From: Candidatus Woesearchaeota archaeon
GTDB lineage: Archaea > Nanobdellota > Nanobdellia > SCGC-AAA011-G17 > JACPIM01
Direction of reading: 5' to 3'
Length of the DNA: 64,000 bases
Assembly: GCA_043817645.1 (NCBI GenBank)
Contig: JBDRGP010000029.1
Location: 58,226-122,225, forward strand
Under the pieces are notes generated by a model that was given only the letters and a program-made list of their open reading frames with translations, had not been told where the DNA came from and searched no databases. Made by a program: the position numbers and the translations under genes. Positions 15,284 to 60,267 of this stretch are shown in pieces. Positions within the stretch are counted from its first letter, which is position 1; each line of letters opens with the position of its first letter.

Positions 15284-16471
15284 TTGATTGTTTTCATAAA
15301 TTCGTATTCTAGAGATTTTAATAGTTATAACTTTATTAAAAATCCCAAAAATAGTTTCCCCAAAAGTGGTCTAACCGTCAGAACGAAAACATTTAAATAT
15401 GCCAAAGTCTTTTATGAGTTTATGGAAAAAAGAGTGGTATTCCCAAAAGGGAAACAAAGGGAGTTTTTAGTCTCTTCAAGAAAAGAACTAAAACTAACCT
15501 GGCCGGAATTTGCTGAAAAAGTCGATACAAAAAGAAAAACTCTAGAAAAGGCCTATAGATATGAATATTGTTCGATGCCATATGGGGTTTTTTCTAAAAT
15601 AGTTAATGAAAGAAACATCAATAAAAAGAGACTTATTAGAGATTATAATATCAAAATAGTAAAAGGAAGTAGATATGGTGCAATTGGAAGGAAGGTGTTA
15701 GGAGAAAAAAGAGCGAAATTAGGCAATATCAACCTTTTATTTGAAAATTCTATACATCCATTTAACACTAGCGTTATAAAATTAAGCAAATATGATGAAA
15801 TTAAGAGAATAAAATTTCCAAATAAATTAACTCCAGAATTAGCTGAAGAAATCGGCATGCATATAGGAGACGGTTTTTTATCCAAAAGAAGGAACGAATA
15901 TCGTTTAAAGGGGAATAAAAATAACGAAAAAGATTACTACAAATACTTCATCAAAAAGCTTTACAAGACTTTGTTTAATTTAGATATTAATCTAAAAGAA
16001 TATGAATCGACATATGGATTTGAAATAAGCTCAAAAGGTCTCTGGACATTTAAAAATAAAATTTTGGGTATTCCATCAGGGAAAAAAGATGATATAGATT
16101 TGCCCGCAATTATAAAAGTGAATGACAAAGATATCCTAACTTCATTTATCCGAGGAGTTTTTGACACAGATGGTTGTGTTAACTTCAAAAGTGGATACGG
16201 TCTAAAGGGATATTACCCAAGAATAGAGATAACAATGCTCTCAAAAGATTTAATAGGGAGCATATCGGAGATATTATATGCATTGGGATTAAAACCATAT
16301 AAGCATCAAGATAAACTAGGATATTGGCATATTACTTTAAATGGCTATGAAAGATTTGAAAGATATAATAAATTAATAGGATGGCATAATCCCAAACACT
16401 TAAGAAAGATAAAAAAATGGAAAAAACAATATCCAAAATTAGGAAAGGATGTAATGGTAGGGGTAGTGTAG
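15284..16471 (+). CDS. Free-standing LAGLIDADG homing endonuclease (two LAGLIDADG motifs) with a ~180-aa N-terminal extension
   Basis: The motifs are IGMHIGDGFL and IRGVFDTDGCV. The last ~5 codons and the stop run into the 5' end of the tRNA-His gene. Confidence 0.7.
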   Translation: MIVFINSYSRDFNSYNFIKNPKNSFPKSGLTVRTKTFKYAKVFYEFMEKRVVFPKGKQREFLVSSRKELKLTWPEFAEKVDTKRKTLEKAYRYEYCSMPYGVFSKIVNERNINKKRLIRDYNIKIVKGSRYGAIGRKVLGEKRAKLGNINLLFENSIHPFNTSVIKLSKYDEIKRIKFPNKLTPELAEEIGMHIGDGFLSKRRNEYRLKGNKNNEKDYYKYFIKKLYKTLFNLDINLKEYESTYGFEISSKGLWTFKNKILGIPSGKKDDIDLPAIIKVNDKDILTSFIRGVFDTDGCVNFKSGYGLKGYYPRIEITMLSKDLIGSISEILYALGLKPYKHQDKLGYWHITLNGYERFERYNKLIGWHNPKHLRKIKKWKKQYPKLGKDVMVGVV

Positions 16472-16546
16472 CCTGGTTAGTTTTTACCCAGAAAACACGC
16501 AAGTCTGTGGAGCTTGAGATCGCGGGTTCAAGTCCCGCCCCTTACC
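16456..16546 (+). tRNA. tRNA-His (anticodon GTG, 16507-16509) with encoded G-1 and an apparent ~14-nt insertion in the D-loop
   Basis: Folded by hand. G-1 pairs with C73. The acceptor is gtagggg/cccttac, and the D-stem is gtgt(16466-69)/acac(16495-98). The anticodon arm is caagt-CTGTGGA-gcttg, and the T-arm is gcggg-TTCAAGT-cccgc. 25 nt lie between the D-stem halves, and the insert can form a gtttt/aaaac hairpin. Confidence 0.6.
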
Positions 16547-16568
16547 CGTTTTCAAAAAAGAGGTCAAA

Positions 16569-17825
16569 ATGAAACTTGAAAGATGTAAAGGAACAGTAGA
16601 TTTTCCACCAGAACAAAAAATAGCAAGAGAAGAAATAGTAAGTACCCTAACAAAAGTATTCAAAAAATACGGTTTTGACCCTTTAGAAACCCCAATTTTA
16701 GAGAGATATGATACCTTATCAGCAAATTACGCAGGAGGCGCAGAAATCCTTAAAGAAACCTTCCGATTGAAAGACCAGGGTAATAGAAGTTTAGGATTAA
16801 GATATGACCTAACAGTTCCTTTAGCGAGATTTATTGCAATGAATCCTCAAATTGCATTCCCATTTAAAAGATATCAAATAGAAAAAGTATTCAGAGATGG
16901 CCCAATAACAAGAGCAAGAATAAGGGAATTCTATCAATGTGACGTAGATGTAGTAGGAAGCAGATCTCTATCATACGATGCTGAACTAATCCAACTTTCT
17001 CTAGATGCCTTAAAAGCTCTAAAATTAAAATGCATCATAAAAGTAAATAATAGAAAATTACTAAATGAAATTGTAGATTACGCAGGAATAAAAAAGGATC
17101 CCAATTCAGTAATCTTAGTCATAGACAAATTATACAAAATTGGCAAAGAGGGCGTTGAAAAAGAATTAAAAGAACTAGGGCTAAAAGAAGAGCAAATTAA
17201 AAAAATCACAAAAACTATCTCAGTAAAAGGCACTAACAAAGAAAAACTAGAAAAAATCTCAAAAATAATAAACAAAGAGGGCATAAAAGAACTCAAAGAA
17301 GTTTTAAAATATTTCGAAAAAGATGTTGAATTTGATCCAACATTGGCAAGAGGCCTAGCTTACTACACAGGAACGGTTTTTGAAATTGTCTTAAAAAATA
17401 AAGACTTGGGCTGCAGTGTTGGCGGCGGTGGAAGATATGACAAAATGATTGGAAGTTTTGTTGGAAAAGGAGAAATTCCTGCTACAGGCATCTCATTTGG
17501 ATTAGAACCTCTAAGTTACTGCATAAGCAAATTAAGAAAAGGAAAAAAGACAAATACAGAATTATTCATAATACCTATAAAAACCACAGAAAAGTCCTTA
17601 AAAATTGCTAAGAAATTAAGAGATTCCAATATCAACACAGACATAGACCTAAATAATAGAAACATCTCAAAAAACCTAAATTATGCAAATAAAAAAGATA
17701 TCCCTTATGTTCTATTCATAGGAGAAAAAGAACTAAAACAAAAGAAATTCAAATTAAGAAACATGATCACAGGAAAAGAACAATTATTCACATTAGAAAA
17801 ACTAACAAAATATCTAAAAAACTAG
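16569..17825 (+). CDS. hisS: Histidine--tRNA ligase
   Basis: 418 aa. It has the class II aaRS motifs and RGLAYYTGTVFE; GGGRYD is present, plus a C-terminal anticodon-binding domain. Confidence 0.9.
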   Translation: MKLERCKGTVDFPPEQKIAREEIVSTLTKVFKKYGFDPLETPILERYDTLSANYAGGAEILKETFRLKDQGNRSLGLRYDLTVPLARFIAMNPQIAFPFKRYQIEKVFRDGPITRARIREFYQCDVDVVGSRSLSYDAELIQLSLDALKALKLKCIIKVNNRKLLNEIVDYAGIKKDPNSVILVIDKLYKIGKEGVEKELKELGLKEEQIKKITKTISVKGTNKEKLEKISKIINKEGIKELKEVLKYFEKDVEFDPTLARGLAYYTGTVFEIVLKNKDLGCSVGGGGRYDKMIGSFVGKGEIPATGISFGLEPLSYCISKLRKGKKTNTELFIIPIKTTEKSLKIAKKLRDSNINTDIDLNNRNISKNLNYANKKDIPYVLFIGEKELKQKKFKLRNMITGKEQLFTLEKLTKYLKN

Positions 17826-34308: not shown

Positions 34309-34881
34309 TTGATGGAAGAAAATCAAAGCGAAAAAGGCGCAATTACAGTCAAAAAAAGTATATTGTGGAAATCTGGCACATTTGTGTTTGCAGTATTATT
34401 CATAATAAGCTTATTTACTGGTGGATTTGGACTAAGAAATGATGAATCTGACGCAACTGGAAATGTTATAGCAAACGACCAAGCACCCAATCCAAATATA
34501 GTATCTGAAGACTGGACTGTTTTCGAAAATGAACTTCCAGCAGAAATCAAATCACAAATATTAGCATTTGATAAAGAAAATCCAGAACCTTACGAAGGGA
34601 GGATAACGGAATTTAAAAATTATGATTCCATCCCAAAGACATTAACGGTATTCTACAGTGCAGGCTGCGGATGGTGTAAGCGCTATTATCCAGTTCTTCT
34701 CGAAGCAATGGACAAATATCCTGAAATTGAGATTTATACCCTAGACCTGGGTAGCAATAGTGACGTAGGAAGCATATATGCTGTAAGAGGAACACCAGCA
34801 AATATAATTAATGGTAAATACCTAGTTAGCGGATATATGCCAATAGAGGATTTATCAGAAGTTTTAGACAAACTAAATTAA
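34309..34881 (+). CDS. Membrane-anchored thioredoxin-fold thiol-disulfide oxidoreductase
   Basis: 190 aa with an N-terminal TM. The active site is AGCGWCKRYYP (CxxC). Confidence 0.65.
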   Translation: MMEENQSEKGAITVKKSILWKSGTFVFAVLFIISLFTGGFGLRNDESDATGNVIANDQAPNPNIVSEDWTVFENELPAEIKSQILAFDKENPEPYEGRITEFKNYDSIPKTLTVFYSAGCGWCKRYYPVLLEAMDKYPEIEIYTLDLGSNSDVGSIYAVRGTPANIINGKYLVSGYMPIEDLSEVLDKLN

Positions 34882-35085
34882 TATCAATTTTTTCTTTTTT
34901 TATTCCCTTAAATATATAAGTATCATGGGAGTCTTACTGCTAAACCCGCTCATACTAGTACTGAAACTCATCACAATGTTAATGCGAAAATTGAGAAAAA
35001 ACTGGCTAAGGCTCGGGCAAAAGCGATGAAGAAATCTAGTAAGTAGAAGGAAAATTTAAAAAGAAGTATATTCCTTTATTATTTA

Positions 35086-35447
35086 ATGAAAAGGGGTTAT
35101 GCTAAGATCTACTTTATTGTTCTTATTCTTTTAGTTAGTTTTAGTTTCTTTTTTAATTTTGATGGTTTGAAAGATATTACTGGTAGGATTTCTAGAGAAG
35201 AGTTATGCAAATCTGATATTTGTGATACTGATCTTTTTGTGGGTGGTGAAGTTGTTGGACGTGCGAATGTTTGTGAGAAGGAAGGAAAGATTGAGATTAG
35301 AGAACATTACGCTGGAGAAGAATATTATCCAGACACTTATGGTGGGCTAGAGAATTCTAATGGTGAATATCACTTTACTTTATATGATGGTAGAGATGCG
35401 ATGGTTTATTTTGCTTTTACTGAAGATAGAAGGAGAAAATGTTCTGA
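35086..35447 (+). repeat. Mosaic ~360-bp duplication shared with 41020-41393 (5' ends of two secreted-protein genes)
   Basis: The first ~125 bp and the last ~125 bp are near-identical, including a 100%-identical block tattatccagacacttatggtgggctagagaattc...gaaaatgttctga. The middle ~90 bp is divergent. Confidence 0.7.
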
Positions 35448-37374
35448 TAAGAGTGTTGTAGAGGTGGATGAGGAAGAGGTTTAGGGAATAATTGGAGTCA
35501 ATTGTGAGAGTCTATCAATTGAGGAGTGTACAGCAAATTCGGAGAGATGTGAAATTGCAAATGTAGAAGTAGCTTCTTCTGGAGGATGTGGACGGGAGAC
35601 AACTTCCTTTAGAGATAGGTGCATTGATAAACGAACCGAAGAAGCGTGTGAGCTTAATGGTGGGGAAATTTGTAGTGGTTGTTGTGAAAATATACTTTTT
35701 TCTACAGATGAATTTGTTTGTTGCAGACAGAATAATTGCTTTGTTGACGAACTTACAAGAGACTATACTGGATTAAGATGGGTGTGGACAAACGAATATA
35801 AGTTTATACCGATTGATAATGCGAAAATTACAAGAACATTTCCTGATGGGGAGTATGTGGTTGTTGCTAAAGATATTTATGGCACAACATATAGTGCGAT
35901 ACTTGATAAAGATATAGAAGGGCGTCCCTTAGAAGGAATATCGTCTTATAAATTTAATCTAGGCCCCTATGATCCTCTGAGGGAGGTAGATTTACTTGAA
36001 AGTGAGTGTCTTTTTAGTATAACTTCAATTAGAGATGGTAAACTCTATCCTACTATTAATCCAAGGACGGGTTTGCGAGGAACAATATTTTCTTTTGCTT
36101 TTTCTGTTGATTCCACTGGAATAGAATATATGCCTGCTTCTAGCGATTCTGCTGGAATAGAAAGTGTGTTTGTTTCTACTGTTTCTTCTGGTTTTTCATA
36201 TAGAGTAAATACGGTGGAAAGGGAAGTAGAGAGGGCATATTTTGTACTTTCTGATTTAGGGGGTAATGAACTTTTAGTAGCGGATATGTATGACGATGGA
36301 TTACACGGAGATGGTGAAAACGGTGATTATATGTTTGGTGCAATATTTGACTCTTCATCACTTCCAGTTGGACTATACAAACTTCGATTTTATGTTATAG
36401 ATAATTTTGGCATGGATAATAGTCGAGATTTTTCTTTGAAAATTGAGGATGAATCGGCATTTCAATCTAATTGTATTGAGGTTTATCGAGGTCATAATAG
36501 AGTTGAGGCTCATAACAGAGCAAATGCAATCTTTATCGGGTATGGTTATGATTCCATAACTGATGTAGCAGAGATAAGTAGATGGCAGATGGATAAGCTT
36601 TTGGAGTTAACGCCTTTTAATGAGAATCGAAATAAAATTAATTTTTGGGTGGTCAATGAGATAGGAAGTTTAGACTTATGTCATGATGTAGACTACATTT
36701 TTTATGAATCTGTGGATTGTATTTCGGATTTAAAACAAAGATGCCCCTTTTCAAATGCATTTGTAAATCATCTTGTAAATAGGGATTTTAGATCGCATGC
36801 ATACCCCGCTGTTGAAGAAACTCATAACTCCTTTCCTCTAGAGAGATTGGGTCGCGATTATTTGCTCGCTCATGAGTTTGGGGGGCATACTTTTGGCAAA
36901 CTGTTAGATGAGTATGTAGAACCTGATAATCCAGACAATGTTTTGAATAGTCTCTTCCATGATATACCGTATGTGCTTCCGCAATATGGACCTAATTGTT
37001 ATTCTACTATCGAAGACACTACTTATGATCAATGTTGGCAAAATGCCCCTTGGAAGGAGTTTTTTGGTAGAGGTTGTGGTGATGAAGGCGTAATTGATTG
37101 TGAAAACCTTGTTTTAGAGAGGCAAAGATGCATACTCGCGTGTATAGATCTGTATGAAGATTTGAATGAAAGAACGTCTTGTGTGGATTCTTGTCCAGTA
37201 TACCCAGAAGGTGCTGAAAGAGAAATTACTTGTGTTGAGGGTTGCCAATTATTTGAGCATGGTACCTTCAGACCGAATCACTGTAGTCTTATGATGGCTC
37301 CTGAATTTTGCCTATATTTCGGCTTGTGGAATGAGCATTTATTACAGCAAAAATTAAATCAGTATTCGGAATAA
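35086..37374 (+). pseudogene. Secreted Cys-rich protein: one continuous reading frame (~762 codons) interrupted by a single in-frame TAG at 35482-35484; the C-terminal part carries an HEFGGHT...DEY zincin-like motif
   Basis: ORFs 35086..35484 and 35782..37374 are in the same frame, with no other stop between them. The first ~120 codons are near-identical to the start of gene 41020..43314. Confidence 0.5.
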
Positions 37375-37410
37375 AAACATTTATAAGGTATATTTTTCAG
37401 TATACAGATT

Positions 37411-37890
37411 ATGAGACTTAATCAGAGAATACTAAAAACAGGCCTTGCACTAGGTGCATTATCCCTGGGTGGATGTATATGGGATCTTGAGTCACTTCTA
37501 AAAACAGAACCTGCAACTCCTCTTGTTGGTATGTGGCGTGAACAGGCTGCTTATTCGTGTAGTGGTCAGAGAATCAATAGTAGAGAACCATTTAGAGAGT
37601 TAGTATTTGGAGATAGTTCTTTTACTTTTACCTGGGCCCCTTTTGAGAGTTATGTTGATTATTGGGGTACTTATTCATATAATTCGGAAAGTGGAGAAGT
37701 TGTTATGAGTATCACAGGAGGGAACCAGATTCCGGAAGTATATGATCTTAGGGGTAATGTTTCTTTTAATGAAGATGGAACACTTCACCTTGAGGATATG
37801 TTCTTTGGTTTTCCAGGAGTTCCTTGGAATGATTCTACAGAAAGACTGGATGAAAGACCATGTAGCTATGTTATTGAAGAATTTTTCTAG
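37411..37890 (+). CDS. Lipoprotein, hypothetical
   Basis: 159 aa. It has a signal peptide and lipobox LSLGGC. Confidence 0.45.
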   Translation: MRLNQRILKTGLALGALSLGGCIWDLESLLKTEPATPLVGMWREQAAYSCSGQRINSREPFRELVFGDSSFTFTWAPFESYVDYWGTYSYNSESGEVVMSITGGNQIPEVYDLRGNVSFNEDGTLHLEDMFFGFPGVPWNDSTERLDERPCSYVIEEFF

Positions 37891-37943
37891 GAATAGTTAA
37901 AATAAAAACATATTTAAATAAAACCTTATTCTGTTAATTAGAA

Positions 37944-38507
37944 ATGAAAAAGAGGTTAATCTTATTATCTGTTATCCTGTTCTCTATAGTTGTTTTTCCT
38001 GTTGTAATTTCTGGTTCTTTGGAAAAGGTATTTGTTTTAAAATTATCTTATGATTCTGGAGTTATAAAACAAGAAAGTGTTTATGTTACTCCCATGTATT
38101 TTTCTGAAAAAAAAGATCAACCAGAGGGTGGCTATTTAGCGAAGTTGCTATCCGTGGACAAAGAAGAGTTATATTCCGTGGGGTTTGAGTTTCCGCTTGA
38201 AGTAACAGATTTGCCAGTGCAGAGATTAGAAAAGGGAGAAATTGATCTTTATTTACCCTATAACTCTAATGCAGAAAGAATAGAGATATTCTCTCCAGAA
38301 GGAGATAAAGTATTGGACATTGATGTAAGAGGGTTTATTGAGAATGTTTGTGGTGATGGTGTTTGCGATAAATTAGAAAGTTATGAGTCCTGTAGTTTAG
38401 ATTGCGGGAAAGCTGTTTTTAGTTTTGTAAAAGATTTTGGTGTGTTTATTGCGGGAGGGGTAATCCTTATAATTTTGTTAGTTTATTTAATAAGAAAAAA
38501 ACATTGA
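37944..38507 (+). CDS. Secreted protein with C-terminal TM anchor and a Cys-rich module
   Basis: 187 aa with a signal peptide. It has NVCGDGVCDKLESYESCSLDCG and a terminal TM plus KKH. Confidence 0.45.
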   Translation: MKKRLILLSVILFSIVVFPVVISGSLEKVFVLKLSYDSGVIKQESVYVTPMYFSEKKDQPEGGYLAKLLSVDKEELYSVGFEFPLEVTDLPVQRLEKGEIDLYLPYNSNAERIEIFSPEGDKVLDIDVRGFIENVCGDGVCDKLESYESCSLDCGKAVFSFVKDFGVFIAGGVILIILLVYLIRKKH

Positions 38508-38592: not shown

Positions 38593-39399
38593 TTATTTTT
38601 TAATGTTTGCATTTGTCCATGTAAAGTTAAACATGGTTTCCATTGCTTGTGAAAAGAACTTGGAATTTACCCAAATTCCTGTATCATATGTTTCGTGAGT
38701 GCTTTTATCATCTGTTGCAATGAACATTAATTCTCTTCCATCAATTAAAGCAAATCTTGCTCTGATTGGATTTATTGATCTTAACTCTGCAAATTGTTTT
38801 ATTTCAGATGCTTTTTTTTGAACCTCTTCATTAAAGGGTGTTGCGATTCTTATTTTGATACCTTTATCCTTTAATTTCTTTAATCTAAACTTTAACTTAT
38901 CAAATTTTCTTAAAAGACCTTCAGGAGTTGTAACTATAATAACGGACTTTTTAGCATTTTGAAGCATTGCGTCTAAATGGTCATAGATATTTTCTCTTCC
39001 TTTTATTGTACCAGCAAGAGATTCTGGATCTATTTTTTCAATACCTTGTTTGAATAAAAGCTCTATATCTCTAAACATTTTGTCTTCTTTTACATCGCCT
39101 AAATGTTTAAGTTTCGCATCAGCACGCTCTTTTACATTTTTTCTTACTCTTTTTATGACTTCTTCTGGTGTGATTGCAATGTATTTTATTGGTTTTCCTA
39201 GCTTCAATATGGTAAATCCTTTCTTTTCTAGGCTTTCTAGAACGTCATAGGATCTTGATCTAGGAACATTTGAGATATCTGATAATTCTCCAGCTGTAGC
39301 TATTCCTCTTGAGAGTAATGCTGTCCAGATCTTGACTTCATAAATATTTAAATCAAATGCAGATCTCAACTTCTTTAGGAAACTTTCTTGAACTATCAT
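38593..39399 (-). CDS. TrmB-family transcriptional regulator
   Basis: 268 aa. The N-terminal wHTH LNIYEVKIWTALLSRGIATAGELSDISNVPRSRSYDVLESLEKKGF and the C-terminal sensor domain match TrmB. Confidence 0.8.
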   Translation of the reverse strand: MIVQESFLKKLRSAFDLNIYEVKIWTALLSRGIATAGELSDISNVPRSRSYDVLESLEKKGFTILKLGKPIKYIAITPEEVIKRVRKNVKERADAKLKHLGDVKEDKMFRDIELLFKQGIEKIDPESLAGTIKGRENIYDHLDAMLQNAKKSVIIVTTPEGLLRKFDKLKFRLKKLKDKGIKIRIATPFNEEVQKKASEIKQFAELRSINPIRARFALIDGRELMFIATDDKSTHETYDTGIWVNSKFFSQAMETMFNFTWTNANIKK

Positions 39400-39913: not shown

Positions 39914-40849
39914 ATGAAAGAGTTTGATATTGCTATTCTTGGAGGTGGGGTTACTGGGTTAGCTGCTGCTGTGTATTCTGCCAGATTCAATATGAAAACT
40001 ATTGTTTTTGGCGGTAGATTAGGTGGTTTGATTCAAGATACACATTTGGTTGAAAATTATCCTGGTTTTAAGAGTATTTCTGGATTTGATCTTTCTCAAA
40101 ATATTTTAAATCATGCTAAAGCTTATCCTGAGCAGGTTACGATTAATGAAGAACTTGTTAAGGATGTTGAGAAAACTAAAGATGGTTTTTTAGTTAAAGG
40201 TGCTAAAACTAATGTTAAAGCTAAAACTATATTGTTTGCTACTGGAACTAGAAGAAGAAAGTTAAATGTTCCTGGTGAAAAAGAATTTGCCAATAAGGGT
40301 GTAAGTTATTGTGTAACCTGCGATGGACCATTATTTAAAGGGAAAAAATGCATTATAATTGGTGGGAGTGATAGTGCTGTAAAAGAATCTTTATTACTTG
40401 CTGAATATGCTTCTAAAGTTTATATTGTTTATAGAAAAGAAAAAGTACACCCTGAGCCAATAAATATGAAAAGGGCTGAAGAATTAATTAAAAAAGGAAA
40501 AATTGAGATTATTGGTAATACTAATGTTGTTGAGGTTAAAGGTGATAAGTTTGTTAGTTCTGTTATTTTTGATAAAGCCTATAAGGGAAGTAAAGAGTTT
40601 AAGTGTGAAAGTGTTTTTATTGAGATTGGTCATATAGTTGAGAGTGAGTTGGCTAAAAAATTGGGTGTTAAGTTGGATGAAAAAGGAGAAATAATTATTA
40701 ATTTTGATTCTAAGACTAATGTTGCTGGTGTTTATGCTGGTGGTGATGTTGTTGCAAGAGCTTGGAAACAGGCTATTGTTGGTGTTGCTGAAGGTGTTTT
40801 AGGAGTTAATTCTGCTTATGAGTATATACAAGAGCAGAAAGTTAAATGA
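39914..40849 (+). CDS. trxB: Thioredoxin-disulfide reductase
   Basis: 311 aa. It has FAD motif ILGGGVTGLAAAVY, redox CVTCDG and NADPH motif IIGGSDSAV. Confidence 0.85.
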   Translation: MKEFDIAILGGGVTGLAAAVYSARFNMKTIVFGGRLGGLIQDTHLVENYPGFKSISGFDLSQNILNHAKAYPEQVTINEELVKDVEKTKDGFLVKGAKTNVKAKTILFATGTRRRKLNVPGEKEFANKGVSYCVTCDGPLFKGKKCIIIGGSDSAVKESLLLAEYASKVYIVYRKEKVHPEPINMKRAEELIKKGKIEIIGNTNVVEVKGDKFVSSVIFDKAYKGSKEFKCESVFIEIGHIVESELAKKLGVKLDEKGEIIINFDSKTNVAGVYAGGDVVARAWKQAIVGVAEGVLGVNSAYEYIQEQKVK

Positions 40850-41019: not shown

Positions 41020-43314
41020 ATGAGAAGAGGTTATGCTAAGATCTACTTTATTGTTCTTATTCTTTTAGTGAGTTTTAGTTTCTTTTTTAATTTTGATGGT
41101 TTGAAAGATATTACTGGAAGGATTACTAGAGAAGAGTTATGTACTGATGATATTTGTGATACTGATCTTTATGTAGGTGGCGAGATTCTTGAAGATGCGC
41201 GTGCAAATGTCTGTAAAGAGGAGGGAATAGTTGGTGTGAGAGAGCGCATTTCTGAGTTTCCTAGAGAATATTATCCAGACACTTATGGTGGGCTAGAGAA
41301 TTCTAATGGTGAATATCACTTTACTTTATATGATGGTAGAGATGCGATGGTTTATTTTGCTTTTACTGAAGATAGAAGGAGAAAATGTTCTGACGAAAAT
41401 ATTATAGAGGAACCTTCTGTTTCGAAGGAAGGGACTTTTACTGTTTCAAATCCTTGTATGGGACTGCCAGAAGATGAATGTGGACTAACAGAAGGATGTG
41501 TTGTAGATTATAGGGAACAGGGTCAATCAGGTGGAATTGGAAATTGTTTTGGTAAACAAACGCAAATAGTACCTGTGTGTCTTGATGGCGGAGAAGAATG
41601 TGTTCCTATTTTACCTACTACGCCTGAAAAAACCTTAACTTTTGTGGATGAAAAAGATGTTCCTATTGAAGTTACTGTAACAAAAACTAATTCTGGATTT
41701 TCTTTTCGTAGGAGTTCTGGAGGCGAGTATTCAACAAACACACTAGCAACTGGAGAGTATTGTACGGTTGTAGGAGTGAATTTTCTCACAGGTATTGAAA
41801 ATTATAACTATCAAATGCAGATCGAAAGTTGTAGTGGAGAGGGAGAAAATAGGATTTGTACATATGTCCCAAATGATCTGACCTGGAATCTTGTTGATAC
41901 AGAAGGAGAATATGTTTACAACCAGGCGTTGAGTGGTGAAAATCAAGAAGAAAATTGCCCTCCTCTTCTTCCTGCCACCTTTTCTTGCCCTGAAGAAGGC
42001 TGCCCAAATCCCTATCCTGGATTGTGCAATATCTGGGCTCTTCCTGTTCAGATTCCTGTTTTAATAGGTGCATATTGTGATGGGTGGGATGCACGAGAGT
42101 TAGCTACTGGAGCAAATGCACAACAAGAAGTAGCTGATTGTGATCAGCGGGTGAGGGATGCTATTGAAGGCAGTGGAGAATGTAATAATAATCCGCCAAC
42201 CGTTTCATCTAGTGGGAAGTCAACGCCCAACTTTAAGGAAGGAGATAAATGCGAGCTAATGTGGGCTGTTAATGATATTGAAGATTCTTCAAATCAAAAA
42301 GAAACAGACCTTTTTGTCCCGCGCATTATAGATGAACCCTCCATTAATGATCTTTTTTCTAAAAACCCTCCTTATGAACAGATTATGCCTTATGTTATAT
42401 ATGATAAAGAAGGCAAACTCTATTCTCAAGGGACCAATTTATTTAGGAGGGTGGTAGGAAGAGCTATTGATTCTGGGACTGATCAGGATGGTAAGCTTTG
42501 TCAAGAAAAAGGAGAGGCAGAAACCTCAAAAGAAATAATAATCCCAACGGTTGAATTTCGAGGGAAGAAGGCCGTCCAGTTACCGACGCTTAAATTTGAG
42601 ATTACCAAAACCACCTACAAGGATAGTTGTGATCCTAAGGGGATACTTGATGCGGGGTTTGTTATTGAGACAACCATTGAAAGATGGCTTATACTTGAGG
42701 ATTGTCAGATTGCGGGAAAGACTACTCTTAATTTTAAGTATAGAAATATGTTCTTAGGATCTCCATCAAATTATTCTGTGAGAACGGGACTTTTTGAAGC
42801 AGTTGAGAAGGCTTTGGAGGGGGGTATAAGTGAAGCCAATCTTGAAAAGGTCAAAGGATTTATCTTTAGGTATTATACTCCGCCACCCCACAAGGAATGG
42901 CAATATGCTCCTTTAATTGTTGAGTCTGTCGATGGAAAAGTATACTTAAGCACTATTGATCACGAGATGACTGAAGGGCTTGCCTTGCTTCCGAATAAAC
43001 AGAAAGATTTATTATTGACTCCGCCAGGGAGTTTGAACTTTAAAAGTATAGAAAATGATGAAGGTGAGGAGGCACTTAGATCAATTGAGATTAATGTGGA
43101 AGAAGGTGCTAATGGTGCGGCTAAAAGATGTTTCAATAATCTAAAAGAAGATGATCAAGATGGGGGATTTTGGGGAAAAAGGAGTATAAGACAAGAGAAC
43201 CAAGCTAAAAAATTTGCTGAAATAGAGGCTTTCTATACTGGATATATTAAAGGACACTATGATAAACTAGGAGAATATTTTGAAAACGCAAGGTCTTGTC
43301 TTTGTAAGGAATAA
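41020..43314 (+). CDS. Large secreted Cys-rich protein, paralog of 35086..37374 (shared N-terminal module)
   Basis: 764 aa with a signal/TM, then many Cys pairs. The first ~125 codons are near-identical at the DNA level to 35086-35447. Confidence 0.6.
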   Translation: MRRGYAKIYFIVLILLVSFSFFFNFDGLKDITGRITREELCTDDICDTDLYVGGEILEDARANVCKEEGIVGVRERISEFPREYYPDTYGGLENSNGEYHFTLYDGRDAMVYFAFTEDRRRKCSDENIIEEPSVSKEGTFTVSNPCMGLPEDECGLTEGCVVDYREQGQSGGIGNCFGKQTQIVPVCLDGGEECVPILPTTPEKTLTFVDEKDVPIEVTVTKTNSGFSFRRSSGGEYSTNTLATGEYCTVVGVNFLTGIENYNYQMQIESCSGEGENRICTYVPNDLTWNLVDTEGEYVYNQALSGENQEENCPPLLPATFSCPEEGCPNPYPGLCNIWALPVQIPVLIGAYCDGWDARELATGANAQQEVADCDQRVRDAIEGSGECNNNPPTVSSSGKSTPNFKEGDKCELMWAVNDIEDSSNQKETDLFVPRIIDEPSINDLFSKNPPYEQIMPYVIYDKEGKLYSQGTNLFRRVVGRAIDSGTDQDGKLCQEKGEAETSKEIIIPTVEFRGKKAVQLPTLKFEITKTTYKDSCDPKGILDAGFVIETTIERWLILEDCQIAGKTTLNFKYRNMFLGSPSNYSVRTGLFEAVEKALEGGISEANLEKVKGFIFRYYTPPPHKEWQYAPLIVESVDGKVYLSTIDHEMTEGLALLPNKQKDLLLTPPGSLNFKSIENDEGEEALRSIEINVEEGANGAAKRCFNNLKEDDQDGGFWGKRSIRQENQAKKFAEIEAFYTGYIKGHYDKLGEYFENARSCLCKE

Positions 43315-45353: not shown

Positions 45354-45617
45354 TTATCCTGGTTTCGGAGTTAATTCTTTTGGAGAGGCATGACCGAATT
45401 GTATTAGTAAATCTATGTTTTTTATATTTGGATAATCGCAAGCTCCCCAGCAGGATTGTAGCCAGATGAAGATGTTTGCTTTTGTTTGTTTTTTTAGATA
45501 TTTTGTTATTTCTGTTGCTTTTGGTTTTAGGCCGTCTGGTAATTGGATTAAAACATTTTTTGCTTTTGTTTTTTTTATTTCTTTTACTGCCTTTCCTAGT
45601 TCTAGATTGTATTCCAT
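45354..45617 (-). pseudogene. dph2: Truncated N-terminal fragment of diphthamide synthase Dph2 (radical-SAM 3-amino-3-carboxypropyl transferase)
   Basis: 87 aa. KNVLIQLPDGLKPKATEITKYLKK...WGACDYPNIKNIDLLIQFGHAS matches the Dph2 N-terminal third (VLIQxPEGLK...YGACD...DALIHLGHS), then stops. The full protein is about 330 aa. Confidence 0.5.
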
Positions 45618-45672: not shown

Positions 45673-46101
45673 CTAGATAAAGAGGAGTTTATTTTCCAGA
45701 AGGATCTCTATATCTCTACTTCTTTCCCTACTCCCTACAATTATGAGTGTGCTATGTCTTGGGTACTCCGTTAGGTTTTGAATAAAGCCTTTATAATCTT
45801 TCTTAGGAGTGATTATACGGTAATTTCTTGAAGTGTCGCTATGGAATTTTACTCCTCTAAAACCCACTCCGCAGGGTATTAATAAATTACTGTCTGGCTC
45901 TGGAGCATATTCAATGAAGAGATTATTCCCTACTTCCTGATTAGGCATTATTTCTACATATTCGGCTTTAACAACATTTGGATCCATATGTCTTGCTTTG
46001 TCTATGGCTGGAGCTAGTATATCTGTACTCATTGATAGTCTACGGAGCAATCTACTAAATTCAATATTGATGGCTTCTTCTATGATTATTGTTGGTAGCA
46101 T
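45673..46101 (-). CDS. Hypothetical protein
   Basis: 142 aa. No recognisable family. Confidence 0.4.
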   Translation of the reverse strand: MLPTIIIEEAINIEFSRLLRRLSMSTDILAPAIDKARHMDPNVVKAEYVEIMPNQEVGNNLFIEYAPEPDSNLLIPCGVGFRGVKFHSDTSRNYRIITPKKDYKGFIQNLTEYPRHSTLIIVGSRERSRDIEILLENKLLFI

Positions 46102-47754: not shown

Positions 47755-50304
47755 ATGTATTATAACTTGGGGAAAGAAGAGGTTTTACGTAAATTAGATA
47801 CTTCTGAGAAAGGTCTGTCTGATAGAGAGGTTAGTGCCAGATTAAGGAAATATGGGAAGAACGTTATAAAGAGAAAACATAAGATAAATCCTGTAGTTTT
47901 ATTTTTGAAGCAATTTCTGGATCCTTTGGTTATTATTTTACTTATTGTTACTATTGTGAGCTTTTTTTTAGGGGAGTATTTGGATTCCGTTGTTATACTG
48001 GCTATACTCCTTATAAATGCTATAATTGGATTTGCTAATGAGTATAAAGCTGAAAAGTCAATTGAATTATTACAAAAATTAACTGCTTTACACTCTAGGG
48101 TGCTAAGGGATGGAAAAGAGAAAATAATTCCTGCCTCTAATTTAGTTCCTGGGGATATTATTGTTTTTGAGAGCGGGGACAGGATTGGAGCTGATGTGAG
48201 GGTAATTCAGCAGAGTAATTTGGGTTTGGATGAAGCAATTTTGACAGGTGAGAGTACTCCAGTAAACAAACAATTACACGCTATTGGGCATCATTGTGAA
48301 AAAATCATTGTTGCTGAGCAAAGCAATATGGTGTTTAAAGGAACTACTGTTGTTTCTGGAAGAGGCAAGGGCGTGGTTGTTAGTACTGGCATGAATACTG
48401 AGATGGGAAAGATTGCAGAGTTGGTTCAAGAAGTTGTGAGTGTTAAAACTCCTTTGCAGAAAAGATTGAAAAAATTAGGGCATAAGTTGACTGTTGGTGC
48501 TGTGTTTATTTCTGTTTTAGTTTTTAGTATTGGGATCTTTAGAGAAATGGGGATTTTTAATATGTTTAAGACTGCTATTGCTTTGGCTGTTGCTGTTGTG
48601 CCTGAAGGTTTGCCTGCTGTTGTTACTGTAAGTTTAGCTATTGGTGTGAGAAGGATGTCTAAAAGGCATGCTCTAGTTAGAAAATTGAGGGCTGTAGAAA
48701 CTTTAGGAAGTACTCGTGTTATTTGCAGTGATAAGACAGGGACGATAACCAAGAACGAGATGACTGTTAGAAAAATATTTGCTCATGGCAAAATGTTTGG
48801 TGTTACTGGGGTTGGTTATGGTGTGAGAGGAAGTTTTCTTTATAAGGGAAAAGAGGTTAATTCCCATAGTTTGCACAATATGTTTAATGTTGCTGCTAGT
48901 TGTAATAATTCTGCTCTTCCAAATATAGGGGATCCTACTGAGTTGGCTTTATTGGTTTTAGCTAAAAAAGGAGGAGTAAATAAAATTGAAGAAAGGGTTC
49001 GTGAATTTCCTTTTGATGCTAAAGAGAAGTATATGTCTACTACGCACAGGATTCATGGGGAGGAAGTTACTTTTTTGAAAGGTGCTCCTGAGAAAATTCT
49101 TGGTTTTTGCGATTATATTGAGATTGGTGAGAAGATAATTAAATTAGATAAAAAAGGCAAGGAGAAGGTTTTGGATAAGAATCATGAGATGACTTTAGAG
49201 GCTCTGAGGGTTCTAGGGTTGGCTTATAAAAAGCACGACAAAGCTGTTTTTTTGGGCTTGGCTGGGATGATTGATCCTCCTAGAAAAGAGATTAAGAATG
49301 CAATAAAAGTTGCTCATAAAGCAGGTATTAGAGTTATAATGATTACTGGAGACCATCAAAACACAGCTAAAGCTATTGCTAATAAAGTTGGTATTGCTGG
49401 GGATGTGATGGAAGGAAAGGACCTGACTAAGGAAAAATTGGGAAGAGTAATAAATAAAGTGAATATTTTTGCCAGGGTTGATCCTGAGCATAAAGTTATG
49501 ATTCTAGATGTTTTACAGAAGAAAGGTGAAGTTGTAGCTATGACTGGAGATGGTGTTAATGATGCTCCTGCTTTGAAAAAAGCCGATGTTGGTATTGCTA
49601 TGGGGATTAAAGGCACTGATGTTGCTAGAGATACAAGCGATATTGTTTTAGCAGATGATAATTTTGCTTCTATTGTTAAGGCTGTGAAAGAAGGAAGAAT
49701 TATTTATGATAATATCAAGAAGTTTGTGAAGTTTTTGTTAAGTGCCAACATGGGTGAAGTTGGGATTATAGTAGTTAGTCTGTTATTAGGAATGCCTTTG
49801 CCATTACTGCCTTTGCAACTGTTGTGGATTAATTTGGTTACAGATGGGCTGCCTGCTTTAGCTTTGGGTGTAGATAATTCTAATGTCGATGTTATGAAGA
49901 GAAAACCTAGAGAGAAGAAAGAAACTATTTTGAAAGGAACTTATGGGTTTATCTTTATTGCTGCTATAATAGCTACTGTGGTTATGTTGGGTCTATTTAA
50001 GTACAATCTGAAAGATGGGGTGATGGAGGCCAGAACCGTTGTATTAACTGCCCTGATTTTGTTTGAGCTATTTTTGGCTTTTAGTTGTAGAAGTGAGACT
50101 AGTGTATTTAAATTGAAAGTCAATAAATGGTTGTGGGGCGGTGTTATTTTAAGTGTTCTATTGCACTTGACTATTATGTATACTCCCTTGAATGCTGCTT
50201 TTCAACTAGTGCCTTTGGGTATTGCGGACTGGTTTTGGATAGTTTTATTTAGTAGTTTAGGGTTTGTATTCTTTGAGGTGAAAAAATTAATATGGCACTC
50301 TTAG
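47755..50304 (+). CDS. P-type cation-transporting ATPase (type II, Ca2+-ATPase-like)
   Basis: 849 aa. It has phosphorylation motif CSDKTGTIT and TGDGVNDAPALKKADVGIAMG. The fold is 10 TM. Confidence 0.9.
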   Translation: MYYNLGKEEVLRKLDTSEKGLSDREVSARLRKYGKNVIKRKHKINPVVLFLKQFLDPLVIILLIVTIVSFFLGEYLDSVVILAILLINAIIGFANEYKAEKSIELLQKLTALHSRVLRDGKEKIIPASNLVPGDIIVFESGDRIGADVRVIQQSNLGLDEAILTGESTPVNKQLHAIGHHCEKIIVAEQSNMVFKGTTVVSGRGKGVVVSTGMNTEMGKIAELVQEVVSVKTPLQKRLKKLGHKLTVGAVFISVLVFSIGIFREMGIFNMFKTAIALAVAVVPEGLPAVVTVSLAIGVRRMSKRHALVRKLRAVETLGSTRVICSDKTGTITKNEMTVRKIFAHGKMFGVTGVGYGVRGSFLYKGKEVNSHSLHNMFNVAASCNNSALPNIGDPTELALLVLAKKGGVNKIEERVREFPFDAKEKYMSTTHRIHGEEVTFLKGAPEKILGFCDYIEIGEKIIKLDKKGKEKVLDKNHEMTLEALRVLGLAYKKHDKAVFLGLAGMIDPPRKEIKNAIKVAHKAGIRVIMITGDHQNTAKAIANKVGIAGDVMEGKDLTKEKLGRVINKVNIFARVDPEHKVMILDVLQKKGEVVAMTGDGVNDAPALKKADVGIAMGIKGTDVARDTSDIVLADDNFASIVKAVKEGRIIYDNIKKFVKFLLSANMGEVGIIVVSLLLGMPLPLLPLQLLWINLVTDGLPALALGVDNSNVDVMKRKPREKKETILKGTYGFIFIAAIIATVVMLGLFKYNLKDGVMEARTVVLTALILFELFLAFSCRSETSVFKLKVNKWLWGGVILSVLLHLTIMYTPLNAAFQLVPLGIADWFWIVLFSSLGFVFFEVKKLIWHS

Positions 50305-58500: not shown

Positions 58501-60066
58501 TCACGTTGGAGGATCTTCATAAACAACACGATAAAGAATAACAGAAAACAGCTTAGCAGTAATGATAGGTTTATCACTAATTCTTCCATATACAACCAAA
58601 GAAACACAAATATTCACTAAAACCCACAAATTATACAAACACACTGAAAATAAGAAATAAAACAACCTTATCAAGTAATTCTTACTAGTAGTTCTGGCCT
58701 TAAAATCATGATCTAATTGCCTATATCCAGTTTCAATACCCCATCTTTTAGAATACCAATAATAAAGATAATGAGCTAATTGTTCTGGAACATGAAAATT
58801 AGTGATAAAGGCTCTTTGAATACCTTCCTCATCATCTACTAGAATTAGATTAACTTTGGCTTTCTCCTTCTTACCAAACTCAAAATCTTTAATTATTCTA
58901 GCTCTACAATCCAAACTTTTATCCATCCAAGCCTTAACTCTATCACTCCTTACTTTAGGCATTACAAACTTAATTCTATTGGCCTTAAGAACATTAATCA
59001 CCTTTGGCTTATCAAAACCCCTATCTAAATAAGCCTTATCAATATTTATTTTATCTTTAACTCTTTTAATTATTTTATCAACTAAGTCCTCTAAATTATC
59101 CAATTTATGCATTAATATGGCATCAATCGTAAACCTTCTTCCAGCAACCACAATAGCACATGTAATAAATTGATGAAAATGTGTTGTACCTCTATCTAAT
59201 TTCCCTTCAATTACATAATCATCGTTCTTATCACCATAATAAGGAATATTATGAATGTCTATAGCTATATCTAACTGTCTTCTTCTTAATCCTCTATAAT
59301 TTCTCTTAGCAAAGTTAAAAATAGTGTTAAATACATTATCAAACATCTCTTGTATTATTGTTTTATTACTAAATTTATTAAAGTGATATAACATAGTCCA
59401 GCCACTAGGACATTTCGATTCTGAATTTAATTCTTTAAAAGTTTCAGTACCATTATGGGCAAAATCATGTGTTTGTGCAACATGTACCAAGACATCTAAC
59501 AAATCTTTAGTAGTAAACTTACCATTATTTTTAATCTTAATATCAATTTGCGGATAAATTAATTTCTTTACTAATTTTATAGTTTCTTTTTTTATTTTTC
59601 TTTGTTCTTTAATCTCTTTATTTTTTTGATTAACTGCATTTTTTACTAATTCTAAATCTAAAATAACTCCTTTTTTAGTTGCAGTTTTAAGAATTAATTT
59701 TACTATATTATTTAATTCAAAAAATAAATCTTCATCAACTTTATTCTGGAAAAATCTATTATACCAACTTTTAGCAGGTAAAACTAATTTATTACTCTCT
59801 TTATGAAATCCTAAATGTAACGCTTCTTCCTCCGTTATTTGATCTAATGCTTTATGAAAGAACCTTATTGCTTTGATTTTCTTCCAAAGATAGAATTTCA
59901 GTAAAGATTCAGGAGAGAATTTAGATTGTCTTTGATTGATTACATTGGTAGTATTAGAGAGATCTAACTTGGATAAAATAAAAGAAACCTTAATACAACT
60001 TGTAGTATCAAGGCTTTCAAAAATTTTATTAAGTTCAGATTCCAAATAGCCAATAGAGTTTTTCAT
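58501..60066 (-). CDS. DDE transposase (IS4/ISH3-like family)
   Basis: 521 aa. It has DRGFDKPKV..., a typical DDE-IS4 C-terminal region. Confidence 0.6.
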   Translation of the reverse strand: MKNSIGYLESELNKIFESLDTTSCIKVSFILSKLDLSNTTNVINQRQSKFSPESLLKFYLWKKIKAIRFFHKALDQITEEEALHLGFHKESNKLVLPAKSWYNRFFQNKVDEDLFFELNNIVKLILKTATKKGVILDLELVKNAVNQKNKEIKEQRKIKKETIKLVKKLIYPQIDIKIKNNGKFTTKDLLDVLVHVAQTHDFAHNGTETFKELNSESKCPSGWTMLYHFNKFSNKTIIQEMFDNVFNTIFNFAKRNYRGLRRRQLDIAIDIHNIPYYGDKNDDYVIEGKLDRGTTHFHQFITCAIVVAGRRFTIDAILMHKLDNLEDLVDKIIKRVKDKINIDKAYLDRGFDKPKVINVLKANRIKFVMPKVRSDRVKAWMDKSLDCRARIIKDFEFGKKEKAKVNLILVDDEEGIQRAFITNFHVPEQLAHYLYYWYSKRWGIETGYRQLDHDFKARTTSKNYLIRLFYFLFSVCLYNLWVLVNICVSLVVYGRISDKPIITAKLFSVILYRVVYEDPPT

Positions 60067-60096
60067 TAGTCTGGGAAACTCTGTTCTAAGGGTGGG

Positions 60097-60267
60097 CTAG
60101 TACTTGCCCTTAGGACTTAATTGTAGATCAACTATCGCTTGCCACATACTTCTAAATTGCATATCCATTTCCTGATGTTCATCACAAAGCACTCTTCTTA
60201 GTATTGGATTGAACTTTCCAGGTTTTTTGCAATACTTGCAAGGCCTGTAGGTTCTAATGAGTTTCAT
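60097..60267 (-). CDS. Small zinc-finger ORF upstream of the transposase (orfA-like), not in the ORF track
   Basis: The translation is MKLIRTYRPCKYCKKPGKFNPILRRVLCDEHQEMDMQFRSMWQAIVDLQLSPKGKY (56 aa). Confidence 0.4.
   Translation of the reverse strand: MKLIRTYRPCKYCKKPGKFNPILRRVLCDEHQEMDMQFRSMWQAIVDLQLSPKGKY

Follow-up and report, generated by a model that had tools for sequence, protein, structure and literature searches.

The window analysed here is a stretch of 64,000 nucleotides (nt) from the metagenome-assembled genome (MAG) of a Candidatus Woesearchaeota archaeon (assembly GCA_043817645.1, contig JBDRGP010000029.1), a member of the DPANN archaea. It is densely coding, has a G+C content of 29-37% (2-kb bins) and carries archaeal-type genes, many of them with a TATA-like box about 27-35 nt upstream of the ATG. 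The locus under study, an apparently disrupted gene referred to as the target, lies at 35086..37374 (+). Its translation in frame 1 gave 132 codons, a TAG at 35482-35484, a further 629 codons and a TAA at 37372-37374, with zero other internal stops. In the NCBI annotation of the MAG the two pieces are separate hypothetical proteins, the 5' fragment 35086..35484 as ABIB47_04935 (132 amino acids (aa)) and the 3' part 35782..37374 as ABIB47_04945 (530 aa, GTG start). These two open reading frames (ORFs) share one frame, and translation bore out the original prediction in its claims that the 297 nt between them are free of stops and that the TAG is the sole interruption.

Read across the whole frame, an anchor is followed by an N-module of about 100 aa and a Cys-rich linker, and a middle region then leads to the peptidase domain at the C-terminus. 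The 5' fragment (+) starts at ATG 35086, with a TATA-like sequence TTTAAAAA about 30 nt upstream, and encodes the signal or membrane anchor segment MKRGYAKIYFIVLILLVSFSFFF and the N-module with four Cys before it ends at the premature TAG. On inspection the N-terminus has a positively charged n-region and then 17 hydrophobic residues, and is thus a predicted signal peptide or membrane anchor. The premature TAG (35482..35484, +) lies where the N-module gives way to the Cys-rich region, within acidic sequence that is rich in indels. It is followed by the stop-free Cys-rich linker (35485..35781, +), which has no annotation in frame and is homologous to residues 134-194 of an intact paralog found further downstream in the window. 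The 3' part (35782..37374, +) contains the middle region with the motif YDDGLHGDG..G, common to many repeat-rich surface proteins, the C-terminal M64-like zinc-metallopeptidase domain (~36440..37371) and many Cys, and the merged target protein has 33 Cys.

The gap 35485..35781 (297 nt, 99 codons) was examined for its coding character. It contained 0 stops in frame 1, compared with 4 and 14 in the other frames, and from shuffled sequence of the same composition the probability of 99 stop-free codons by chance was P ~2e-4. Its codon-usage score was positive in frame 1 only, like that of the flanking coding parts. No in-frame ATG, GTG or TTG was present within the gap, so that GTG 35782 is the first possible start codon 3' of the TAG, and the coding-like sequence starts right after the TAG; the start of the ORF at 35782 is therefore a product of ORF calling. 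The whole window was also scanned in six frames for two stop-free segments, each of at least 70 codons, with one stop between them, and only 35482-35484 gave real coding sequence on both sides. An out-of-frame ORF of 62 aa (35588..35776, +) lies inside the stop-free gap; it is called by the Logan gene caller, has a negative codon score for its frame and probably corresponds to ABIB47_04940. In all likelihood the call is spurious and arose because the gene is disrupted.

The two annotated pieces could also represent a gene fission. In that case the TAG would genuinely end one gene, for an anchored N-module protein of 132 aa, and a second gene with its own start would encode 530 aa, both products being functional. 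Annotation of the pieces as separate genes in the NCBI MAG would agree with this, as would the observation that the N-module is a reusable unit that is fused to various C-terminal parts. In a fission, the 99 codons after the TAG would not be expected to be both devoid of starts and yet open and homologous to the coding sequence of the paralog. GTG 35782 also has neither a TATA-like box nor a Shine-Dalgarno (SD) sequence upstream, though neighbouring genes have a TATA-like box about 27-35 nt upstream. Furthermore, the 530-aa product would be without a signal peptide, though it is Cys-rich and comes from a family of secreted enzymes, and the 120+ peptidase-domain homologs with a plausible N-terminus all carry their own leader. 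Given the lack of a start for 99 codons, of a TATA-like box or SD and of a signal peptide, the 3' part is unlikely to be expressed on its own, and fission was considered quite unlikely.

The 629 residues after the TAG were used in an exhaustive HMMER search, which returned 249 relatives, all of them matching the C-terminal ~220-330 residues. In the best intact relatives (718, 733, 755 and 588 aa) the peptidase domain is found at the C-terminal end of a long ORF. One of these, P0005 (718 aa, locus L004 of GCA_964367885.1), is encoded by one uninterrupted ORF and resembles the target at both ends: the N-modules are 39% identical over 116 aa and the M64-like C-terminal domains 39% identical over 320 aa (E 1e-56). 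The N-terminus of P0005 reads MKRGFAKIYFIVLILL and that of the target MKRGYAKIYFIVLILL, and the first 16 residues, MKRG[YF]AKIYFIVLILL, are kept although the overall identity is only 39%. The gene downstream of the target is a lipoprotein-like gene (37411..37890, +) with a lipobox-like LSLGGC, and the gene downstream of P0005 in L004 is 43% identical to it. Judged by this conserved gene order, P0005 is the positional homolog of the target.

A second comparison was provided by the intact paralog (41020..43314, +; 764 aa, ABIB47_04980), which shares the signal anchor, the N-module and the Cys-rich linker with the target. BLASTP of the merged target against this paralog gave a single high-scoring segment pair (HSP) covering residues 1-196 with 61% identity (E 6e-67), and this HSP runs across the TAG into the Cys-rich stretch (C-x7-C-x6-C). 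A third paralog of this MAG, P0274 (ABIB47_03855), is cut off by the end of its contig; it has ..KEG.. in place of the ..V*G.. of the target. The residue at the TAG site is Glu in both paralogs of the target (P0002, P0274) and Lys in P0005, and none of the homologs and paralogs compared has a stop there (Glu, Glu, Lys). The intact homologs are uninterrupted ORFs of 718-764 aa. The architecture of P0005, the HSP across the TAG and the P0274 alignment show that the sequences on both sides of the TAG once formed one ORF of ~762 codons with a sense codon at this site. The ancestral residue was probably Glu, and since GAG to TAG is one transversion, GAG would be the simplest ancestral codon.

The original prediction had also invoked the paralog 41020..43314, arguing that its intactness points to decay of one copy. 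The paralog is indeed intact, but the argument drawn from it does not hold: homology to the target is limited to residues 1-196, and the C-terminal ~570 aa of the paralog are unrelated to the M64-like peptidase of the target. The paralog is therefore not a redundant copy that would explain decay, and its intactness says nothing on redundancy. The intact positional homolog P0005 is better evidence for a broken gene than the paralog. The further claim that the locus is one ~762-codon gene for a secreted protein, interrupted by one TAG, is supported by both the intact P0005 and the HSP across the TAG; of the origins that the original prediction listed, a nonsense mutation is the most likely.

To what family the encoded protein belongs became apparent at the level of the family profile. 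The target alone gave no match in PDB (phmmer) nor in Pfam at default thresholds, scoring 15.2 bits on Peptidase_M64 (PF09471), which is below the gathering threshold (cut-off 26). Six relatives (P0005, P0008, P0009, P0012, P0017 and P0024) scored 40-52 bits on the same model, above the gathering threshold. A family profile (A4) built from the target domain and 19 relatives matched the M64-type structures 4DF9 (E 3.6e-18) and 3P1V (E 8.4e-18) and also the immunoglobulin A (IgA) proteases 9EKK and 9QDH (E 2e-6). The target is thus predicted to encode a zinc metallopeptidase of M64-like type, rich in disulfides and either secreted or anchored in the membrane, with an activity that is likewise a prediction.

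The state of preservation of this domain bears directly on the age of the lesion. Conservation across 121 relatives reaches at least 80% in 34 columns; the target retains 30 of these, including the conserved Cys, and the four that differ belong to one motif, where its closest relatives deviate too. Residues H596, E597, H601, D608, E609 and Y610 are all retained. The zinc-binding/catalytic motif (36871..36915, +), HEFGGHTFGKLLDEY, has the spacing HExxxH (HEFGGH), where the canonical motif is HExxH. HEFGGH was considered as a second disabling lesion and rejected, as the HExxxH spacing was found in 14 of the 127 other family members with a recognisable motif and recurs there in intact genes. Across the M64-like family, ~11% of the members have HExxxH, often as HE.GGH, in proteins that are otherwise intact (P0014, P0016, P0031, P0045, P0066 and 9 others). 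The retained conserved residues exclude an old pseudogene.

The possibility that the TAG is a base-call error, which the original prediction had listed, was examined by comparison with contigs from other assemblies. The MEGAHIT contig from ENA (L002, k141_1492622) corresponds to window positions 34623..37961 with 0 mismatches over 3339 nt, the TAG included, and the Logan contig L003 (SRR6514274), corresponding to 35418..37603, has the identical TAG. The same 530-aa call is made on the JGI contig, which implies the TAG there as well. Because the TAG recurs in these other assemblies, a base-call, consensus or assembly error at this site is unlikely, and sequencing error is disfavoured as an explanation. 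The MEGAHIT assembly has a break at 37961..37989, between L002 and L001 and inside ORF 37944..38507, where the MAG contig is continuous.

An assembly artefact deserved attention all the same on account of a repeat. A block of 129 nt (35319..35447, +) is 100% identical to 41265..41393 of the paralog, and the TAG lies 35 nt downstream of it. It was conceivable that a true sense codon stands at 35482, or that the contig is a chimera joined across this repeat: the MAG was assembled from short reads, the perfect repeat ends close to the TAG, the Logan contig breaks within that repeat, and the third paralog's contig has its end in this region as well. The last 30 nt of the repeat 35319..35447 (k−1 for k=31) form the start of the Logan contig, as a branch in a k=31 graph would produce. 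On the other hand, three assemblers agree on the bases (the MAG contig, MEGAHIT with k141, which exceeds the repeat length, and Logan). The TAG and the in-frame codons on either side of it are unique sequence downstream of the repeat, and a chimeric join could therefore not create or remove the stop; even a swap of the N-module would leave it in place. Taken as a whole, an artefactual origin of the TAG appeared very unlikely. A related-locus search among metagenome contigs and genome contigs detected no other strains or alleles of the locus, and a search for contigs encoding the JGI copy returned no record.

The 129-nt block is part of a wider pattern at the 5' end of the gene. From the ATG on (35086..35447 in the target, 41020..41393 in the paralog) the DNA identity between the two genes is a mosaic with exact blocks of 41, 47, 23 and 129 nt. 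At least three genes of the MAG (the target, 41020..43314 and P0274 on another contig) share a near-identical 5' module and differ in their C-terminal parts. This pattern suggests gene conversion among at least three genes, with the 129-nt block as a likely gene-conversion tract. It is extremely improbable that the target is a silent cassette in a 5'-module conversion system, or that its TAG is leaky or conditionally suppressed so that mostly the short N-module and occasionally a full-length protease is made.

The role of TAG in this organism was assessed from 65 non-overlapping ORFs of at least 90 aa in the 64-kb window. These terminate with TAA in 29 cases, TGA in 21 and TAG in 15 (23%). Two of the genes ending in TAG encode conserved proteins, a histidyl-tRNA synthetase (HisRS, 16569..17825) and a P-type ATPase (47755..50304), and in both of them C-terminal Pfam models were matched to their last positions at 0-3 residues from the protein end. 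Beyond the other TAG stops the frame stays open for 0-47 codons before it meets another stop, with one exception in which 175 codons of K/N-rich junk, antisense to another gene, remain open. Within the window, TAG is thus a normal terminator in this organism.

Two further in-frame TAGs came up as candidates in the window, and neither is a split gene. The first, 45673-45675 (-), was considered as an interrupted Dph2 gene and rejected, as this TAG ends an unrelated 142-aa ORF, the 175 open codons after it are the K/N-rich antisense sequence just described, and the Dph2-like ORF lies in a different frame from the TAG. That 87-aa ORF (45354..45617, -) matches only the N-terminal part of Dph2 (PF01866), the rest being absent and a gene on the opposite strand abutting it, and it is probably a gene remnant. 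The second candidate, 60097-60099 (-), lies between a 56-aa Zn-ribbon-like ORF and a DDE transposase and was rejected because ~120 homologs of the transposase, 500-530 aa long, cover only the 521-aa ORF and have no N-terminal extension. At this locus (58501..60267, -) the 56-aa CxxC...CxxH ORF ends with its TAG 33 nt before the ATG of the 521-aa DDE_Tnp_1 transposase, and the frame that they share is probably a coincidence. The 161-kb contig to which the window belongs also has a transposase, P0154, that is 93% identical to this one, suggesting a second copy of the insertion sequence.

Since TAG ends verified C-termini and the other two in-frame TAG candidates are not split genes, the window refutes, as far as it extends, a genome-wide reassignment of TAG (e.g. 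Code 34), and with it the genome-wide recoding that the original prediction had considered. What has to be weighed separately is decoding of this TAG alone, by pyrrolysine (Pyl), a suppressor tRNA or near-cognate readthrough, which would yield a short N-module protein together with a full-length protease at a lower level. The gene is otherwise intact, with catalytic and structural residues all kept, and the TAG lies in an acidic linker of variable sequence that would probably accept any residue, both of which would suit readthrough. In some Pyl-encoding archaea TAG serves both as stop and as sense codon, with more than 15% TAG stops (bioRxiv 10.1101/2024.09.30.615893). Published surveys report Pyl machinery from eight phyla of archaea, with no DPANN lineage among them (PMC9630628; bioRxiv 10.1101/2024.09.30.615893). 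No tRNA-Pyl (CUA; pylT) and no pylS or pylBCD was found within the 64-kb window, nor was any other CUA-anticodon or suppressor tRNA: ARAGORN gave only tRNA-Met and tRNA-Gly(CCC), and Rfam added nothing. No second bona fide in-frame TAG was present in the 64 kb. The RNA 3' of the TAG showed no significant structure, PYLIS-like or other (z = -1.61), and 17 of 200 shuffled sequences folded equally well or better. In addition, the stop is not conserved, the paralogs and the homolog having sense codons at the site. Against this background, site-specific decoding of the TAG seemed highly improbable.

Our data are best explained by a single premature TAG that is, with good probability, a nonsense mutation of recent date, or else a null allele that segregates in the sampled population, cutting the product to 132 aa with loss of the protease. 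According to this explanation, 35086..37374 is one gene for an anchored or secreted M64-like peptidase in a Candidatus Woesearchaeota (DPANN) archaeon, in which a nonsense mutation, most simply from GAG, would have created a TAG at codon 133. Translation would then end after the signal anchor and the N-module, leaving a 132-aa stub, and the peptidase part would not be made. The stop, its recurrence across assemblies, the origin of both parts in one gene and the role of TAG as a terminator are established here; the absence of the full-length protein is expected rather than observed. That the lesion is recent, or the allele a segregating null, is suggested by the otherwise undamaged state of the gene, and the inactivation is probably recent.

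Several points weigh against this explanation. Further signs of decay are missing, in that there is no second lesion, no frameshift and no loss of motif residues; this points to a recent event and is compatible with disruption, but function may still be kept via low-level readthrough. The four assemblies may derive from the same reads, and the population may be mixed at base 35482. The survey for suppressor tRNA and Pyl genes covers 64 kb of the genome, and high TAG usage alone does not exclude Pyl machinery (bioRxiv 10.1101/2024.09.30.615893).

An anchored thioredoxin-like protein with the motif CGWC (34309..34881) is encoded upstream of the target and a thioredoxin reductase (39914..40849) downstream. 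The cluster around the target and the paralog comprises 34309..34881, 37411..38507, 38593..39399 (-) and 39914..40849 and also holds two small secreted or lipoprotein-like proteins (one with LSLGGC) and a TrmB-family regulator. These genes may together make up a functional island devoted to disulfide-rich surface proteins, and the neighbourhood fits an extracellular, disulfide-rich target product. Elsewhere in the window, the tRNA-Gly(CCC) gene (16457..16547, +) was found by ARAGORN and not by Rfam at the gathering threshold; its length of 91 nt makes an intron probable. Its first 15 nt are shared with the 3' end of ORF 15284..16471 (+), which encodes 395 aa with a LAGLIDADG_3 homing-endonuclease-like domain.

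These findings have consequences for annotation, in which ABIB47_04935, the intervening ORF and ABIB47_04945 should become one disrupted gene. They also connect peptidase family M64 with a large family, so far without a name, of secreted archaeal proteins rich in Cys. For stop-recoding screens in DPANN archaea the locus can serve as a worked negative control, showing that a lone in-frame TAG in a gene that is otherwise intact is not evidence of recoding. If true, readthrough here would be the first such case in DPANN, and no finding points that way. All in all, the target looks like a broken gene of the ordinary kind: it belongs to the M64-like family, is disrupted in this DPANN archaeon and has been annotated as separate hypothetical proteins.

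The locus can be compared with four known systems. With genes whose TAG is decoded as Pyl (mtmB/mtbB/mttB of Methanosarcina and the genes of Code 34 archaea) it has in common that an archaeal ORF, intact in other respects, contains a TAG in frame. Unlike in those genes, the TAG of the target is not conserved in homologs and the family has no known link to Pyl; TAG is here a frequent, verified terminator, the window is without a tRNA-CUA, and the host lineage is outside those reported to have Pyl genes. Surface-protein families with a converted 5' cassette are similar in having a shared 5' module, mosaic identity and divergent 3' parts. This is a resemblance only, with neither programmed switching nor use of silent cassettes evidenced here.

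With peptidase family M64 (PF09471), which includes the IgA protease of Thomasclavelia/Clostridium ramosum and the structures 4DF9 and 3P1V from Bacteroides, the target family shares the motif HEFGH.FG.L.DEY and also EPF..N..FN. The target differs from M64 in its HExxxH spacing, in having some 20 additional Cys together with an insert rich in Cys, and in being fused to an archaeal signal anchor, the N-module and a beta-rich middle region.

Prokaryotic genes disrupted by a nonsense mutation, whether young pseudogenes or null alleles, are routinely mis-annotated as two adjacent ORFs. From typical genes of this kind the target shows no material difference, although automatic recognition is hindered because it resides in a DPANN MAG and has no close ortholog. 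Like them, it has a single premature stop relative to intact homologs and both fragments in one frame, with an open, coding-like gap between them and a stop codon that is a normal terminator of the genome.

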